Below, piece by piece: positions 21,568 through 54,442 of a stretch of DNA of 64,000 bases. The translations under genes and the position numbers were made by a program. The DNA comes from Actinomycetota bacterium (lineage in GTDB: Bacteria; Actinomycetota; UBA4738; HRBIN12), in assembly GCA_046731295.1 (NCBI GenBank), contig JBKPKU010000051.1:13902-77901 (forward strand). The letters run 5' to 3'. Positions within the stretch are counted from its first letter, which is position 1. Each line of letters opens with the position of its first letter. Under the pieces are notes generated by a model, which saw only the letters and a list, made by a program, of their open reading frames with translations, searched no databases and was not told where the DNA came from.

Positions 21568-22509
21568 TCACGCGAGCATGTCGAGCGCGAAACGGGCGAG
21601 TGCCTCGGCCTTCGCGTCGTCGGTCATGATCGAGTCGGTCGCGCCGGCCCGAACGCCGGTTGCCTCGATGCGCGGGATCAGCGCTCGATCGGCCGCGTCG
21701 ACGACCCAGGCCGCGAGCAACCCGTCGTAGCAGGCGGCGGCCCCGGCGGCCGAGACCTCGGCGCCGGCGGCGGGCATCAGCCGATCCGCCATCCCCGCGA
21801 GCGGCGCGCCGGCGACGATCCCACTCACGCCGACCACGTCCGAGCGCCGTGCCGCCAACGCGTCGCGGATCCCGGGGACGGCGAGGATCGGGCCGATCGA
21901 GGCGACCGGGTTCGACGGGCACAGCACGACCGTGTCCGCATCGGCGATCGCCAGGAGCACGCCGGGGGCCGGGCGTGCGTGGTCGGCACCCTCATAGCGG
22001 ATCCTCTTGACCTCGTCGCGTCCCCCGCGCCGAACCCAGTATTCCTGGAAGTGCAGGTCGAGCTCGGCGCCGTCGGAGACGATCGTGATCCGCGTGGCGA
22101 TGGGATCGTCGCTCATCGGCAGGAGCGTGGCCCCGATCCCGAACCGCGCGGCGACCGCCGCGGTCGCCTCGCTCAGCGTCTTGCCCGCGGCGAGCAGGTT
22201 CGTCCGGAACAGATGCGTCGCCAGATCGAGGTCGCCCAGGTTGAACCACGCCTGGTCGGGGTCGAACGATCGGAGCTCCTCGGTCGCCCGGAACGTCTCG
22301 CCGCGCCGCCCCCACCCGCGCTCGCGGTCGAACACGTCGCCCAGCCAGTACGTCACCGAGTCGAGATCCGGTGAGACGTGAAGGCCATGCATCGTGATGT
22401 CGTCGCCGGTGTTCACGAGCACGGTGACGTCCCCGGGGGCAACCACACGGACGAGTCCGCGCAGGAACTTCCCGGCGCCGATCCCGCCGGCCAGCGCCGT
22501 GACCCTCAC
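21568..22509 (-). CDS. fbiA: 2-phospho-L-lactate transferase (CofD/FbiA)
   Basis: VRVTALAGGIGAGKFLRGL...VLVNTGDDITMHGLHVSPDLDSVTY...LCPSNPVASIGPIL. The GTG start overlaps the upstream stop (GTGA at 22506-22509). Confidence 0.9.
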   Translation of the reverse strand: MRVTALAGGIGAGKFLRGLVRVVAPGDVTVLVNTGDDITMHGLHVSPDLDSVTYWLGDVFDRERGWGRRGETFRATEELRSFDPDQAWFNLGDLDLATHLFRTNLLAAGKTLSEATAAVAARFGIGATLLPMSDDPIATRITIVSDGAELDLHFQEYWVRRGGRDEVKRIRYEGADHARPAPGVLLAIADADTVVLCPSNPVASIGPILAVPGIRDALAARRSDVVGVSGIVAGAPLAGMADRLMPAAGAEVSAAGAAACYDGLLAAWVVDAADRALIPRIEATGVRAGATDSIMTDDAKAEALARFALDMLA

Positions 22510-23843
22510 GCGTCCACCACCGTGAACAGCCGCCACGGCTCGGGGACGCCCTTGAGCGTGTGCATGCCTCGGTCCGCGAACGCGATGCCGGACCCGGCGA
22601 CCAGGTCCCGCACCGTGCTGGAGACCAGGACCTCGCCCGGCGAGGCCTCGGCGGCCACGCGGGCACCCGTGTGCACGGCGATACCTCGGATTCCACCGTC
22701 GGCGAGCTCGACCTCGCCGGTGTGCAGGCCGGCGCGGATCTCCAGACCCAGCGACCGAACCCCGTCGCGGACGGCGCACGCGCACCGGATCGCGCGGGCC
22801 GGCCCGTCGAACGTCGCCAGGAAACCGTCGCCCGCCGTGTCGACCTCGTGGCCGCGGTGGCGTTCGAGCTCCTCGCGCACGAGCGCGTGGTGACGACCGA
22901 TCACGTCGCGCCACGCCACGTCACCGAGCGCGGACGCGCGGGCCGTCGAGTCGACGATGTCGGTCATCAAGATCGTGGCCAGCACCCGGTCGCGCCCGGA
23001 CGCGGGCCGCGAGCCCGTCAGGAACTCCTGGACCTCGTCGAGGATGAGGTCGGCATTTCCGATGAACGGGAAGTAGTCGTCCCCCTCGACCTCGACGTAG
23101 CGGGCCCCGGGGATGTGCTCGCCGAGGTAACGGCCGTGCACGGCCTCCACCAGACGGTTGTCCCGCCGCGAGATGACCAGCGTCGGCACGCGGATCGAGG
23201 GAAGCACGTCGCGCACGTCGAGCTGCTGGAGCATGTGGCGCATCGCGAGCACCGTGCCCGGGCTCGACCCGAGGCGCTGGTACCGCGCCCACCAGCTGCG
23301 GAACGCGGGGTCGCCGGCCACGGTGGGCCCGACGGTCTCGAGCAGCACGCCGCGGCCCCACCCGAACTCCAGCTCCTGCTCGATCCGCGCCTCGAACTCG
23401 GGCGAGGTGCCCCATGGGTAGTCGGGCGCCCGCGTGTACCGGGCCGTGGTGTTCATGAGCACGAGAGCGCGTACGCGTTCGGGCGCGGTGGCGGCCAACA
23501 GCATCCCGACGCCGCCGCCTCCTCCGACCCCGAGCACGGAGGCCTTGGCCGACCCCGCGGCCTCCATCGTGGTGATCACGTCGTCGGTCCACACCTCCAG
23601 TGTCGGCATGTCGGACAGCGAGACCGGGTCGGACGAGCCCGTGCCACGCTGGTCGATGCAGATCACGCGGGCGAACGACCCGAGCCGCTCGAGGAAGTGC
23701 TGGTAGTCCGGCTGCTCCCACATCGCCTCGATCGAGTTCCAGAACTCCGCCAGGAACACGACATCGAGGCCGCCGCTCCCGAACACCTGATAGGCGACGT
23801 GCACGTCGCCGCTCCTCGTGTACCGCGTCTCGGGGGCGTCCAT
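22506..23843 (-). CDS. Alpha/beta-hydrolase-fold domain fused to class III adenylate/guanylate cyclase domain
   Basis: Start MDAPETRYTRSGDVHVAYQVFG at 23843. The hydrolase-fold half has GVGGGGG where the GxSxG nucleophile elbow is expected. The C-terminal half reads ATILMTDIVDST...VDTAGDGFLATF...IRAGLHTGEVE...GIAVHTGARV. Confidence 0.85.
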   Translation of the reverse strand: MDAPETRYTRSGDVHVAYQVFGSGGLDVVFLAEFWNSIEAMWEQPDYQHFLERLGSFARVICIDQRGTGSSDPVSLSDMPTLEVWTDDVITTMEAAGSAKASVLGVGGGGGVGMLLAATAPERVRALVLMNTTARYTRAPDYPWGTSPEFEARIEQELEFGWGRGVLLETVGPTVAGDPAFRSWWARYQRLGSSPGTVLAMRHMLQQLDVRDVLPSIRVPTLVISRRDNRLVEAVHGRYLGEHIPGARYVEVEGDDYFPFIGNADLILDEVQEFLTGSRPASGRDRVLATILMTDIVDSTARASALGDVAWRDVIGRHHALVREELERHRGHEVDTAGDGFLATFDGPARAIRCACAVRDGVRSLGLEIRAGLHTGEVELADGGIRGIAVHTGARVAAEASPGEVLVSSTVRDLVAGSGIAFADRGMHTLKGVPEPWRLFTVVDA

Positions 23844-23888
23844 CCGAGGCAGTCTGCGGCGACGGACCGACGGGCTGCAACCGGCCGG

Positions 23889-23901
23889 TGATACGCTCGC
23901 C
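23889..23901 (+). promoter_or_regulatory. Putative extended -10 promoter (TGA-TACGCT) for fbiC, near-leaderless
   Basis: TGATACGCTCGCC is identical to 8296-8308. The hexamer at 23892-23897 ends 10 nt before ATG 23908, with no SD sequence. Confidence 0.4.
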
Positions 23902-23907
23902 GAGCCC

Positions 23908-26451
23908 ATGCGTGCAGCACCCGAGCGCCTGCTGTCACGCTCGCTCGCGCGGGCGACCTCGGGCAAGTCCCTGTCCGTCGACGAGGTCGAGGCGTTGCTG
24001 TCTGCGCGAGGGCCCGCGCTCGCCGACCTCACGTCGCTGGCGTCGAACCTGCGAGAGCTCGGTCACGGCCGCACCGTCACGTACTCGCGCAAGGTGTTCG
24101 TCCCGCTCACGATGCTGTGCCGTGACCACTGTCATTACTGCACGTTCGCCAAGCCGCCGGCCAAGCTGGACCACCCGTTTCTGTCGCCCGATGAGGTCGT
24201 GGCGATCGCCGAGGCGGGGCGGCGCATGGGGTGCAAGGAAGCGTTGTTCACGCTCGGCGACCGGCCCGAGGAGCGGTACGACGTCGCGCGCGCCTGGCTT
24301 GCTCAGCGGGGATTCGGATCGACGCTCGAGTACGTGCGCGCCTCCGCGATCCGCGTGATCGAGGAGACCGGGTTGCTCCCGCATCTCAACCCCGGCGTCA
24401 TGTCCTACGAGGAGATGGCCCGCCTCAAGCAGGTGGCGCCCTCGATGGGGTTGATGCTCGAGACCTCCTCTCCCCGGCTGTCCGAGCGCGGGGGTCCGCA
24501 CTTCGGGTCGCCGGACAAGGTCCCCGCCGTGCGCGTGCGCACCATCGAGGACGCCGGTCGGCTGGCGATCCCGTTCACCACGGGGATCCTGGTGGGGATC
24601 GGAGAGACGCTCGCCGAACGAGCGGCGTCGCTGCTCTCGATCCGCGAGATCCACCGCCGGTACCGGCACGTCCAGGAGGTGATCGTCCAGAACTTCCGGG
24701 CCAAGCCCGGCACGGCGATGCACGACGCGCCCGAACCCGGAGACGAGGAGTTCCTGGCCACCGTTGCGACCGCCAGGGTCGTCTTCGGCCCGCGGATGCA
24801 TGTGCAGGCGCCGCCCAACCTGTCGGATCCAGAACAGCAGCTCCGGCTGCTCGACGCCGGGATCGATGATTGGGGCGGCGTCTCGCCGCTCACGCCCGAC
24901 CACGTGAACCCCGAGCGCCCGTGGCCGGCGATCGAGCGCCTAACCGCCCGGACCGCCGAGCGCGGGCTCGAGCTGCGCGAGCGCCTGACGATCTACCCCG
25001 AGTTCGCGCTGCGGCCCTCGTCGTTTCTGGCCGGCAGGATGCGGGCCCCGGTCGAGGCGCTCATGGCCCCGGATGGCTTGGCCGTGCCCGGCGCGATCGC
25101 CCGGCCGATCCCCTGGCAGGACCCGGATATCTCCTGGAAGCCGCGCACGACCGAGCTGACGTTCGCCAAGGGCCGCGGCTCGGGGCTCCGATCGGACGCC
25201 GACGTCGTCTACGGCACGGCCGACCTCCCCGAGCGCACCCTGGCGTGGCGTTCGGAGCGGGTGTCGCCCCGGCGGCTCGAGGGGCAGATCCGCTCGGCCC
25301 TGTCGAAGGCCGAGGCGCACCGCCCGATCACGGACGAGGAGGCGATGGCGCTGTTCCGAGCGGACGGCGATGCACTCGAGGCCCTGTGCGGGGTCGCCGA
25401 CGGACTACGCGAGGAGGCCGTCGGCGATGCGGTCACGTACGTCGTGAACCGCAACATCAACTTCACCAACGTGTGCTACGTGGGGTGCCGCTTCTGTGCG
25501 TTCGCCCAGCGCGAGGTCGACCCCGAGTCGTACACGCTGACGCTGGCAGAGGTGGCCGACCGCGCTCGCGAGGCCGCCGCGTGGGGATGCACCGAGGTGT
25601 GCATGCAGGGCGGGATCCATCCCGACCTCCCCGGATCCTTCTACTTCGATCTGCTCGACGCCGTGCGCGAAGCGGCGCCGGATATCCACATCCACGCGTT
25701 CAGCCCCATGGAGGTGATGAACGGCTCGACCAAGCTCGGCATCTCGTTCCGCGAGTTCCTGCAGGAATGCCGGGCGCACGGGCTGGGCACGATCCCGGGC
25801 ACCGCGGCCGAGATCCTGGACGACGACGTGCGCTGGGTGCTGACCAGGGGAAAACTGCCGGCCGACGCGTGGGAGCGGATCGTTCGAACCGCGCACGACC
25901 TCGGGATCCGCAGCTCGTCCACGATCATGTTCGGGCACGTCGACGCGCCCCCGCATTGGATTTTCCACATCCGGCGCATCGCGAACATCCAGCGTGACAC
26001 CGGCGGATTCACCGAGTTCGTTCCCCTGCCGTTCGTGCACCAGAACGCCCCGATCTACCTCGCCGGGAAGGCGCGCCCCGGTCCCTCATTCGAGGACGAC
26101 CGGCGCATGCACGCGGTTGCGCGCATCCTGCTCGACCGAGTTATCCACAACGTTCAGGTGTCGTGGGTGAAGATGGGCGTGCGGGCCTGTCAGACGATCC
26201 TGAACGGCGGCGCGAACGATTTCGGCGGTACGTTGATGGAGGAAACGATCAGTCGCATGGCCGGCGCCGAATGGGGGATCCGCATGGAACCGTCGCAGAT
26301 CCGCGATGCGATCACGGCGATCGGCCGCATCCCCGTCGAACGCAGCACCACGTACGAACCGTTGCAGCGCAATGAGTTCAGCCATGTATCTGACGGTGCA
26401 CACGGCGACCACGAGGCCTCGAGACGCGAGGGGCCCGGCTCGAACGCCTGA
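23908..26451 (+). CDS. fbiC: FO (7,8-didemethyl-8-hydroxy-5-deazariboflavin) synthase, fused CofG/CofH radical-SAM domains
   Basis: Two radical-SAM cysteine motifs (CRDHCHYCTF and CYVGCRFCAF) in one roughly 850-aa protein. Start chosen at ATG 23908 (MRAAPERLL). Confidence 0.9.
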   Translation: MRAAPERLLSRSLARATSGKSLSVDEVEALLSARGPALADLTSLASNLRELGHGRTVTYSRKVFVPLTMLCRDHCHYCTFAKPPAKLDHPFLSPDEVVAIAEAGRRMGCKEALFTLGDRPEERYDVARAWLAQRGFGSTLEYVRASAIRVIEETGLLPHLNPGVMSYEEMARLKQVAPSMGLMLETSSPRLSERGGPHFGSPDKVPAVRVRTIEDAGRLAIPFTTGILVGIGETLAERAASLLSIREIHRRYRHVQEVIVQNFRAKPGTAMHDAPEPGDEEFLATVATARVVFGPRMHVQAPPNLSDPEQQLRLLDAGIDDWGGVSPLTPDHVNPERPWPAIERLTARTAERGLELRERLTIYPEFALRPSSFLAGRMRAPVEALMAPDGLAVPGAIARPIPWQDPDISWKPRTTELTFAKGRGSGLRSDADVVYGTADLPERTLAWRSERVSPRRLEGQIRSALSKAEAHRPITDEEAMALFRADGDALEALCGVADGLREEAVGDAVTYVVNRNINFTNVCYVGCRFCAFAQREVDPESYTLTLAEVADRAREAAAWGCTEVCMQGGIHPDLPGSFYFDLLDAVREAAPDIHIHAFSPMEVMNGSTKLGISFREFLQECRAHGLGTIPGTAAEILDDDVRWVLTRGKLPADAWERIVRTAHDLGIRSSSTIMFGHVDAPPHWIFHIRRIANIQRDTGGFTEFVPLPFVHQNAPIYLAGKARPGPSFEDDRRMHAVARILLDRVIHNVQVSWVKMGVRACQTILNGGANDFGGTLMEETISRMAGAEWGIRMEPSQIRDAITAIGRIPVERSTTYEPLQRNEFSHVSDGAHGDHEASRREGPGSNA

Positions 26452-26612
26452 TTCCGTCTAGTTCATTGACCGAACCGGTCAAGCAGATGGACCATCGAAA
26501 TTCTTCGGAGAACCCCTTGCACCTTGCGCCGAGCACGTATTCGATTCCCTGGGGACGCATGTGGAGGAGTTCCATAACTCGAGTTTCCCTCTTGCCAAGA
26601 GGGGGACGGATA

Positions 26613-26642
26613 CCCCAGAATCACACGCGTGTGATTCTGGGG
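26613..26642. promoter_or_regulatory. Perfect 30-bp palindrome 17 nt upstream of the whiB start codon
   Basis: CCCCAGAATCACACG|CGTGTGATTCTGGGG, read directly. The core ATCACA-N4-TGTGAT lies at 26620-26635, and the right arm abuts the GGGGAGAGGG purine tract. Confidence 0.6.
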
Positions 26643-26658
26643 AGAGGGCGGGGCCCGC

Positions 26659-26886
26659 ATGCATCACTACATCCCATGGCAGGAGCGAGCACGGTGCAGG
26701 CAGCACGATCCGGAGGTGTTCTTCCCCGAGAAGGGAGGTTCATCGAGGGAGGCGAAGCGGATCTGCGCGGACTGCCCGGTTCGCATCGAGTGCCTCAACT
26801 ACGCCCTTCGTCGCGATGAGCGGTACGGGGTGTGGGGAGGGATGAGCGAACGAGAGCGGCGACGCCTGAAGCGCATGGCGTCCTGA
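26659..26886 (+). CDS. whiB: WhiB-family Fe-S redox-sensing transcription factor (WhiB2/WhmD-like by neighbourhood)
   Basis: ARCRQHDPEVFFPE...AKRICADCPVRIECLNYAL...YGVWGGMSERERRRLKR shows the four-Cys pattern and GVWGG turn. Confidence 0.92.
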   Translation: MHHYIPWQERARCRQHDPEVFFPEKGGSSREAKRICADCPVRIECLNYALRRDERYGVWGGMSERERRRLKRMAS

Positions 26887-26906: not shown

Positions 26907-27260
26907 ATGTCCCCAGCGAGAAAGAGATCGACCGCAGGCAAGAAGGCGGCCGCGACACGCAAGCGGAAGACCGCCGCCCGCAAGACGGCGGCGAAGAAGG
27001 CAGCCGCAACGCGCAAGCGGAAGACCTCGGCGAGGAAGCCCGCGACGCGGAAGTCTCCCAAGCGGAGAACCGCGGGTAAGAAGGCGGCCGCGACGAGGAA
27101 GCGCAAGACTTCCGCCGCTCGCAAGACAACACGGAGAAAGCCCGCCGCCCGCAAGCCGGCGGCGAAGAAGGCGACTCGCAGAAGGACCACGCGCAGGAAG
27201 ACGGCGGCCAAGAAGACCGCTGCGCGTAGACCCAAGAGGCGGACCGCGAAGAAGCGGTAA
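26907..27260 (+). CDS. Highly basic Lys/Arg/Ala/Thr repeat protein (histone-H1-tail-like, putative nucleoid-associated)
   Basis: 117 aa composed almost entirely of K/R/A/T. GKKAAATRKRKT occurs twice and KKAAATRKRKT a third time. A good SD (GAAAGGGGG) lies 6-8 nt before the ATG, 20 nt after the whiB stop, and a strong hairpin follows. Confidence 0.65.
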   Translation: MSPARKRSTAGKKAAATRKRKTAARKTAAKKAAATRKRKTSARKPATRKSPKRRTAGKKAAATRKRKTSAARKTTRRKPAARKPAAKKATRRRTTRRKTAAKKTAARRPKRRTAKKR

Positions 27261-27276
27261 GCGTCGGGTCGAGAAC

Positions 27277-27313
27277 GAACGCGGAAGGGGGGCGTTGCCC
27301 CCCTTCCGCGTTC
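27277..27313 (+). terminator. Perfect 17-bp stem, 3-nt loop hairpin after the whiB/basic-protein pair
   Basis: GAACGCGGAAGGGGGGC-GTT-GCCCCCCTTCCGCGTTC. There is no U-tract, which is common for high-GC actinobacterial terminators. Confidence 0.7.
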
Positions 27314-27369
27314 GACGAGCATCTCCTGCCTGCTAGGCTGCGCGCCGCCCTCGGGCGGCAACGACCCCA

Positions 27370-33015: not shown

Positions 33016-33043
33016 TTGAAATCACATCCGTGTGATCTACGCT
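33016..33043 (+). promoter_or_regulatory. Sigma-70-type promoter (TTGAAA-16 nt-TACGCT) with a 16-bp dyad ATCACAtccgTGTGAT filling the spacer
   Basis: -35 at 33016-33021 and -10 at 33038-33043. ATG 33050 lies 7 nt after the -10, implying a leaderless mRNA. The dyad at 33021-33036 has the same half-sites as the whiB palindrome core. Confidence 0.5.
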
Positions 33044-33049
33044 TGCCCC

Positions 33050-33259
33050 ATGCGGACGTGTTCGAGGATCCGGTGCTCCACGTTGGCCACGGCCACGGCC
33101 GCGATGCGCTACGACGAGCGGTCGATCCTGCTGCTCGATCTCGTGGCCGACCCCGACCCGGGGCTCGTGGACCTGTGCCCAGACCACGCGGCCCGGCTCA
33201 CGCCTCCGATGGGGTGGGCGATCGCCGACCTGCGCGTCGCGTCGGCGGTCCCGGCCTGA
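33050..33259 (+). CDS. DUF3499-type small protein
   Basis: MRTCSRIRCSTLATATAAMRYDERSILLLDLV...LCPDHAARLTPPMGWAI matches the actinobacterial DUF3499 pattern, which is usually found next to phosphomannomutase. Confidence 0.75.
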   Translation: MRTCSRIRCSTLATATAAMRYDERSILLLDLVADPDPGLVDLCPDHAARLTPPMGWAIADLRVASAVPA

Positions 33260-54265: not shown

Positions 54266-54338
54266 CCCGATGGGAGTGGGCAGCTCGCGATGCCTTCATC
54301 GAAGGCTTCCGCGCGGGAAGGTCTTTGCCGCCGCCAGC

Positions 54339-54356
54339 GATGCCTCCGGAGGCATC
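54339..54356. terminator. 18-bp perfect palindrome between convergent genes
   Basis: GATGCCTCC|GGAGGCATC. Confidence 0.35.
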
Positions 54357-54442
54357 GGGCGCCCGGCAACAACCTCCCCGCCGGTTCCGATACCAAAGAC
54401 GTCATCGCCTTCGAGGAAAACGCAAGGTCGCGTTCGGGTTCC

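Follow-up and report, generated by a model that had tools for sequence, protein, structure and literature searches.

A conserved McdR/BldO-type candidate operator over the whiB promoter of uncultured soil Actinomycetota

In an uncultured actinobacterium, the cell-division regulator gene whiB is preceded by a perfect 30-bp palindrome. This is very probably an operator in the DNA, bound by a dimeric repressor of the MerR family that belongs to the McdR/ResR (Rv1830) or BldO type. The 18-bp core of the palindrome matches the motif AATnACA-N4-TGTnATT, keeps a fixed register with the hexamers of a conserved predicted promoter and is conserved at whiB in a clade of related bacteria. A known regulatory system accounts for this real and conserved feature; no new mechanism is involved. 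Read in this way, it carries the McdR/BldO-whiB repression circuit beyond mycobacteria and Streptomyces, in which the circuit was tested, to a large uncultured clade of soil actinobacteria (62 species-level genomes).

The whole stretch of DNA that was analyzed, 64 kb in length, is called “the window” below. Its relatives were collected by a scan of one genome per species, which resulted in 62 loci of uncultured soil Actinomycetota with WhiB proteins 88–100% identical. The features of the window are listed in Table 1.

Table 1. Features of the whiB upstream region and of the DUF3499 promoter in the window
Feature	Position	Strand	Sequence or remark
Four-hexamer array	26455..26493	.	CGTCTA-5-TTGACC-5-GGTCAA-5-TGGACC; alternating, 11-bp period
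Dyad 1	26466..26482		TTGACCG-AAC-CGGTCAA; central pair of the four-hexamer array
Possible upstream promoter P1	26507..26535	+	TTGCAC-17-TTCGAT; low confidence
Dyad 2	26587..26603	.	CCCTCTTG-C-CAAGAGGG; brackets the P2 -35; window and closest group
-35 hexamer of the proximal promoter P2	26592..26597	+	TTGCCA; from the promoter scan; CTTGyCA near-invariant
Perfect 30-bp palindrome	26613..26642	.	CCCCAGAATCACACG/CGTGTGATTCTGGGG (arms meeting at the slash); in this genome only; outward extension of the conserved box
-10 hexamer of P2	26616..26621	+	CAGAAT; the predicted operator starts with its AAT
18-bp core	26619..26636	.	AATCACA-cgcg-TGTGATT; predicted operator of McdR/BldO type, AATnACA-N4-TGTnATT
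Predicted P2 transcription start	26627..26630	+	Palindrome centre; taken as 6–8 nt 3' of the -10
Shine-Dalgarno tract	26639..26648	+	GGGGAGAGGG; overlaps the outer right arm of the palindrome
whiB2/whiB-type gene	26659..26886	+	75 aa; Pfam PF02467
Second McdR-type box	33020..33037	.	AATCACAtccgTGTGATC (= AATCACATCCGTGTGATC); 1 mismatch; 0.05 matches expected
DUF3499 gene	33050..33259	+	Rv3258c-like

The palindrome, its conserved core and the promoter

The original prediction listed three dyads upstream of whiB, and all of them lie at the positions it gave (Table 1). The gap between the palindrome and the ATG had been given as 17 nt; a count gives 16 nt (26643–26658), with the ATG at 26659. A perfect palindrome of such length was said to be unlikely by chance, and this is correct: 15-bp arms are expected 0.0006 times from composition, and the longest palindrome arm reached in 50 shuffles of the window was 13 bp. 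The palindrome is the longest perfect one in the window, where the runner-up (54338–54357) has arms of 10 bp. It is a single-copy sequence in the window, even if three mismatches are allowed.

The conserved unit is the 18-bp core. AATnACA-N4-TGTnATT was found at whiB in the 62 clade loci, exactly in 59 of them and with one mismatch in the other three; the window core has zero mismatches. Among the 52 distinct sequences of the core, 12 arm positions are invariant. The four central columns are near-random in sequence, and the length of the spacer is always 4 nt. The single arm position that often varies (C or T, with G or A in the opposite arm) is the “n” of the published McdR motif.

The length of the perfect arms was compared in 77 copies, i.e., the window and 76 related copies (locus L094 was left out because it does not match the search pattern). 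The commonest length is 7 bp (42 of the 77 copies), and 15 bp is reached in the window alone. Each arm is longer by 6 bp here because the invariant CAG of the -10 hexamer and a run of C happen to lie opposite CTG and the G-run of the Shine-Dalgarno tract. This outer part of the arms is a peculiarity of this genome. Thus the check for conservation of the dyad upstream of whiB2 orthologues, proposed in the original prediction and made here in 62 species, has a twofold outcome: the 18-bp core with its 7-4-7 layout is kept, while the 30-mer as a functional unit has to be given up, its full length being restricted to the window.

The upstream regions of the relatives share the pattern cTTGyCA - 18 nt - CAGAAT CACA nnnn TGTGATT - G-rich Shine-Dalgarno tract - GTG/ATG, in which the tract GGGGGGAG is kept 2–10 nt 3' of the box. 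The promoter scan of the window detected TTGCCA-18-CAGAAT, for which 0.1 sites are expected. The distance between CTTGyCA and CAGAAT is fixed at 18 nt in 63 sequences, and both CAG and AAT of the -10 hexamer are invariant in all 52 distinct sequences. Since the hexamers are conserved at a fixed spacing, the box has its first bases in the -10 and extends across the predicted transcription start. The overlap of the box with the conserved predicted promoter CTTGyCA-18-CAGAAT is clear; the position of the start itself we infer from the -10. The palindrome had initially been assigned to the whiB leader. This holds for transcripts started upstream, which would contain the palindrome; with respect to P2, it overlaps the predicted -10 and start, and its left arm is outside the P2 transcript.

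Because the box spans the -10 and the predicted start of P2, a promoter of sigma-A type, a bound dimer would shut out RNA polymerase or block open-complex formation, and whiB transcription would be turned off. The same dimer would also be a roadblock to any transcript started upstream. An operator for a dimeric repressor that blocks initiation was one of the two suggestions of the original prediction, and it is the one that gains support from the motif, its position and its conservation, as well as from experimental precedent in relatives (McdR on whiB2 and BldO on whiB).

Two minor observations concern the annotation of these loci. Gene callers often run whiB upstream through the box, which produces spurious N-terminal extensions (P0001, P0002, P0004, P0008–P0010, P0038); these are the palindrome translated in two frames, as PQNHTRVILG or PSESHACDSG. 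As a practical annotation rule, whiB calls that read through the box often carry a false N-terminal extension. Additionally, a contig binned as Candidatus Saccharibacteria (L060) encodes a WhiB 91% identical to that of the window, preceded by an AT-rich region with neither the box nor the promoter. Mis-binning, transfer or a phage could explain this copy.

Comparison with McdR, BldO and classical MerR sites

The McdR box on the mycobacterial whiB2 promoter was experimentally defined as AATnACAnnnnTGTnATT (Zhou et al. 2022, PMC9040748), and the window core corresponds to it with zero mismatches. In mycobacteria, a mutation of either arm or a change of the spacer length abolishes McdR binding and whiB2 repression, while a change of the spacer sequence is harmless (PMC9040748). 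The constraints observed across the 62 species are those predicted by these mutational experiments: the arms and the spacer length are fixed and the spacer sequence is free. Purified ResR/McdR of M. tuberculosis binds the whiB2 promoter with a Kd of about 0.33 uM (PMC10336103). The M. tuberculosis box, AATCACATCAGTGTCATT, is situated 1 nt from the mapped whiB2 start (Table S4 of PMC9040748), and its left arm is identical to the left arm AATCACA of the window.

The window thus has much in common with the McdR/ResR (Rv1830) systems at whiB2 of M. tuberculosis and M. smegmatis (PMC9040748; PMC10336103). They share AATnACA-N4-TGTnATT, a whiB2 orthologue as the target, a position at the -10 and the transcription start (both of them predicted in our case), the importance of the arms and of the spacer length but not of the spacer sequence (here judged from conservation), and the gene neighbourhood (fbi genes, DUF3499, phosphomannomutase). 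There are also differences. Unlike the McdR hosts, the clade studied here consists of uncultured soil Actinomycetota, whose WhiB shares about 70–75% identity with its cultured counterparts in actinobacteria. Only 13–25 nt lie between the end of the box and the start codon, and the 5' untranslated region is thus very short. The extension of the palindrome to 30 bp is seen in this genome, and an extra box is present at the DUF3499 promoter. Finally, the operator of the window is a predicted one, whereas for the McdR system the regulator and its binding have been demonstrated.

According to the literature, McdR is conserved across actinobacteria and exclusive to them. Searches with generic MerR queries and with the Rv1830 sequence detected no gene for an McdR/BldO homologue, either in the 64 kb of the window or in the loci that were fetched; a protein of this kind is presumably present in the clade and would be the one that binds the box.

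BldO of Streptomyces venezuelae is a MerR-family protein with whiB as its sole target, and it protects approximately 40 nt over the -10 and the start of whiBp2 (Bush et al. 2017, PMC5485038). As in the window, where the -10 and the start are predicted, an inverted repeat overlaps these two elements of the proximal whiB promoter, and the promoters have a related shape: a TTGAC-type -35, an 18-nt spacer and a -10 that ends in AAT. The published BldO repeat is TGxAATTxCA, within the footprint of ~40 nt, and this is unlike the 7-4-7 box of the window. At the loci of Streptosporangiaceae, the TGxAATTxCA string (TGTAATTTCA) marks the junction where two 7-4-7 boxes, set 14 bp apart, overlap; the window, in contrast, has the downstream box only. 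Such a two-box junction could be behind the 40-nt footprint of BldO. We take BldO and McdR to be orthologues, which is our own suggestion and is stated in neither paper.

The whiB promoters of Brevibacterium (L070, L071), Acidothermus (L098), Streptosporangiaceae and others also carry boxes with 0–1 mismatches. Among the loci L064–L080 and L098 there are two overlapping boxes 14 bp apart that share TGTAATT (Streptosporangiaceae, Nocardioidaceae, Cumulibacter and other lineages), and the upstream box of the pair contains GACAC, the WhiA/WhiB2 motif. Brevibacterium and Acidothermus have the upstream box only, inside the spacer between the -35 and the -10. The occurrence of boxes at whiB both across the clade and in other lineages supports the view of an ancient, phylum-wide control point of cell division.

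Classical MerR promoters (MerR, CueR, SoxR) involve the same regulator family, a dyad-symmetric site and a coiled-coil dimer. Their sites lie within a 19–20-bp spacer between the -35 and the -10, and activation proceeds by DNA distortion. The whiB box, in contrast, is located downstream, over the -10 and +1, and is predicted to be a repressor site, as noted for McdR (PMC9040748).

The second box of the window resembles the classical MerR sites in its position. It lies between -35-like and -10-like hexamers of the DUF3499 promoter, 6.4 kb from whiB. The ATG of DUF3499 is 6 nt 3' of the -10-like TACGCT, and thus the mRNA is probably leaderless. With 0–2 mismatches, the second box is present in the window and in seven of the ten closest relatives that carry DUF3499, at the same position (L090, L092–L097); L089, L091 and L086 have a degenerate box or none, the box being missing in L086 and L091. 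The location of this box in untranscribed promoter DNA speaks for a DNA-binding regulon and against an RNA structure. The M. smegmatis orthologue of DUF3499, MSMEG_1833, shows a 3.8-fold drop on McdR overexpression, an effect that could be indirect, and DUF3499 is not among the reported direct targets of McdR.

Upstream elements and alternative readings

The two other dyads had been presented together with the palindrome. They are present but unrelated to it, and their fates differ. Dyad 1 is conserved as part of a larger array of four hexamers, which starts just 3' of the fbiC stop codon in the window and has the pattern GGTCAA-5-TTGACC-5-GGTCAA-5-TTGACC in the clade. About 53 of the 62 relatives carry the array with no more than 8 mismatches over the 24 specified positions, while the best background match has at least 9. 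The distance from the array to the -10 is fixed, the array being about 160–172 nt upstream, and in its best copies two palindromes of 17 bp each can be read, GGTCAATCWGATTGACC. The array was detected nowhere else in the 64-kb window, and a search of the literature for GGTCAA/TTGACC operators returned nothing useful. The array looks like a double palindromic operator and is probably one; it is the sole unexplained piece of the whiB upstream region. Dyad 2 does not keep its dyad symmetry in the clade: 62% of its cells pair, compared with 59% in shuffles and with as much as 66% if the partner columns are shifted. It is a local coincidence around the -35.

Between these two dyads there is a possible upstream promoter, P1. 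In the relatives, CTTGCAc is conserved and is followed after 17 nt by CACGAT or ACGAT. Many of them read cGACACGAT, so that the P1 -10 region of many relatives contains the WhiA/WhiB2 motif GACAC; the window is without GACAC. If P1 is active, its transcript would carry the whole palindrome, and P1 together with P2 would parallel the two start sites of whiB2 in M. tuberculosis.

The original prediction offered a second reading, an RNA hairpin that occludes the ribosome-binding site. On this reading, when transcription begins upstream, at a distal promoter or by read-through from fbiC, a 13–15-bp hairpin, whose 3' arm includes the start of the Shine-Dalgarno tract, would block whiB translation until it is opened. 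The window RNA can indeed fold into a hairpin of about 13 bp with a loop (-29.1 kcal/mol, z = -3.7). In the relatives, pairing is possible between the GGGGGGAG tract and the left flank, which is rich in pyrimidines (CTTCCCTC); many of the pairs are G-U, and 75% of the outer-helix cells pair. Suitable transcripts are also conceivable: P1 is conserved, fbiC is co-directional with whiB throughout the clade, and no terminator was predicted between the two genes, so longer transcripts containing the full hairpin may exist. However, five of the seven core pairs never vary, and changes on both sides are limited to a single pair, in six sequences. We considered the symmetric change from C-G to T-A in the arms as a sign of RNA covariation and rejected it: it falls on the “n” that the protein motif leaves unconstrained, the same pattern would result from a symmetric dimer, and non-complementary bases are seen at this position in L084 and in M. 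tuberculosis. Overall pairing reaches 85.8%, against 84.4% in column-composition shuffles, and RNAalifold predicts only this hairpin, to which covariation contributes -0.58 kcal/mol. The left arm is upstream of the predicted P2 start, and the z-score of a transcript from that start, +0.7, indicates nothing unusual in its structure. Being in untranscribed promoter DNA, the second box also speaks against an RNA role. A hairpin that hides the ribosome-binding site therefore gains no support from covariation, and the outer pairing is explained by composition. We regard a role of the palindrome as RNA as improbable; since upstream transcripts would contain the hairpin, translation may be affected in a secondary way. 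It is also rather unlikely, on our assessment, that the hexamer array is a double operator for an undescribed regulator of whiB and that, in addition, the box, its left flank and the G-rich ribosome-binding site form a hairpin that silences translation in upstream-started transcripts. If this were true, the control of whiB in the clade would be more elaborate than in the McdR model, with one DNA element acting at both the transcriptional and the translational levels.

Other proteins might be thought of as ligands of the palindrome, since its arms contain TCACA and TGTGA, the half-sites of dimeric regulators of the CRP/GlxR family and of the redox sensor Rex. The consensus is TGTGA-N6-TCACA for CRP/GlxR and TTGTGAA-N4-TTCACAA for Rex, and CRP regulates whiB1 in M. 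tuberculosis. In those sites the half-sites converge, whereas here their order is everted, TCACA-N4-TGTGA, with invariant AAT and ATT outside. The published McdR box, in turn, fits with zero mismatches. An operator for CRP/GlxR or Rex is thus very unlikely. Boxes of BldD (TNAC-N5-GTNA) and BldM were considered both for the palindrome and for the hexamer array and were rejected because the spacings do not fit. The last reading, that of a chance feature or a repeated or mobile (REP- or MITE-like) element with no specific role at whiB, would agree with the palindrome being intergenic and with nothing beyond that. It is refuted by the single copy in the window, by the expected number of 0.0006 and by the orthologous position in a fixed promoter register in 62 species, and we give it practically no credence. 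An McdR/BldO-type operator is the reading that we prefer.

The whiB gene and its neighbourhood

The closest named relatives of the WhiB protein of the window are WhiB-family regulators. The gene has fbiC upstream and a Lys-rich histone-like gene and a GT2 glycosyltransferase gene downstream; the genes for DUF3499 and phosphomannomutase follow a few kb beyond whiB. The order fbiC > whiB > GT2 is constant in all 62 loci. The linkage of whiB to fbiC/fbiA/fbiB and to DUF3499-phosphomannomutase resembles the M. tuberculosis region Rv3255c–Rv3262.

The Lys-rich gene directly 3' of whiB (26907–27260) encodes a 117-aa protein rich in Lys, Arg, Ala and Thr, with weak similarity to the histone H1-like HC2. 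The relatives have an unannotated gene of 108–121 aa in the same place. An 18-bp GC-rich hairpin without a U-tail is located just 3' of the Lys-rich gene (27276–27313), and the region 27255–27335 folds with -47.7 kcal/mol (z = -4.8). This hairpin is probably the terminator of a two-gene operon of whiB and the histone-like gene. An Rfam scan of 26452–26658 gave zero matches, and only microRNA-type models, far below the threshold, were reported at the hairpin 27277–27313. On the other side of whiB, a gene for a fusion of an alpha/beta-hydrolase and an adenylate/guanylate cyclase domain (22506–24032, minus strand) is divergent from fbiC and occurs in the closest relatives only (L089, L094).
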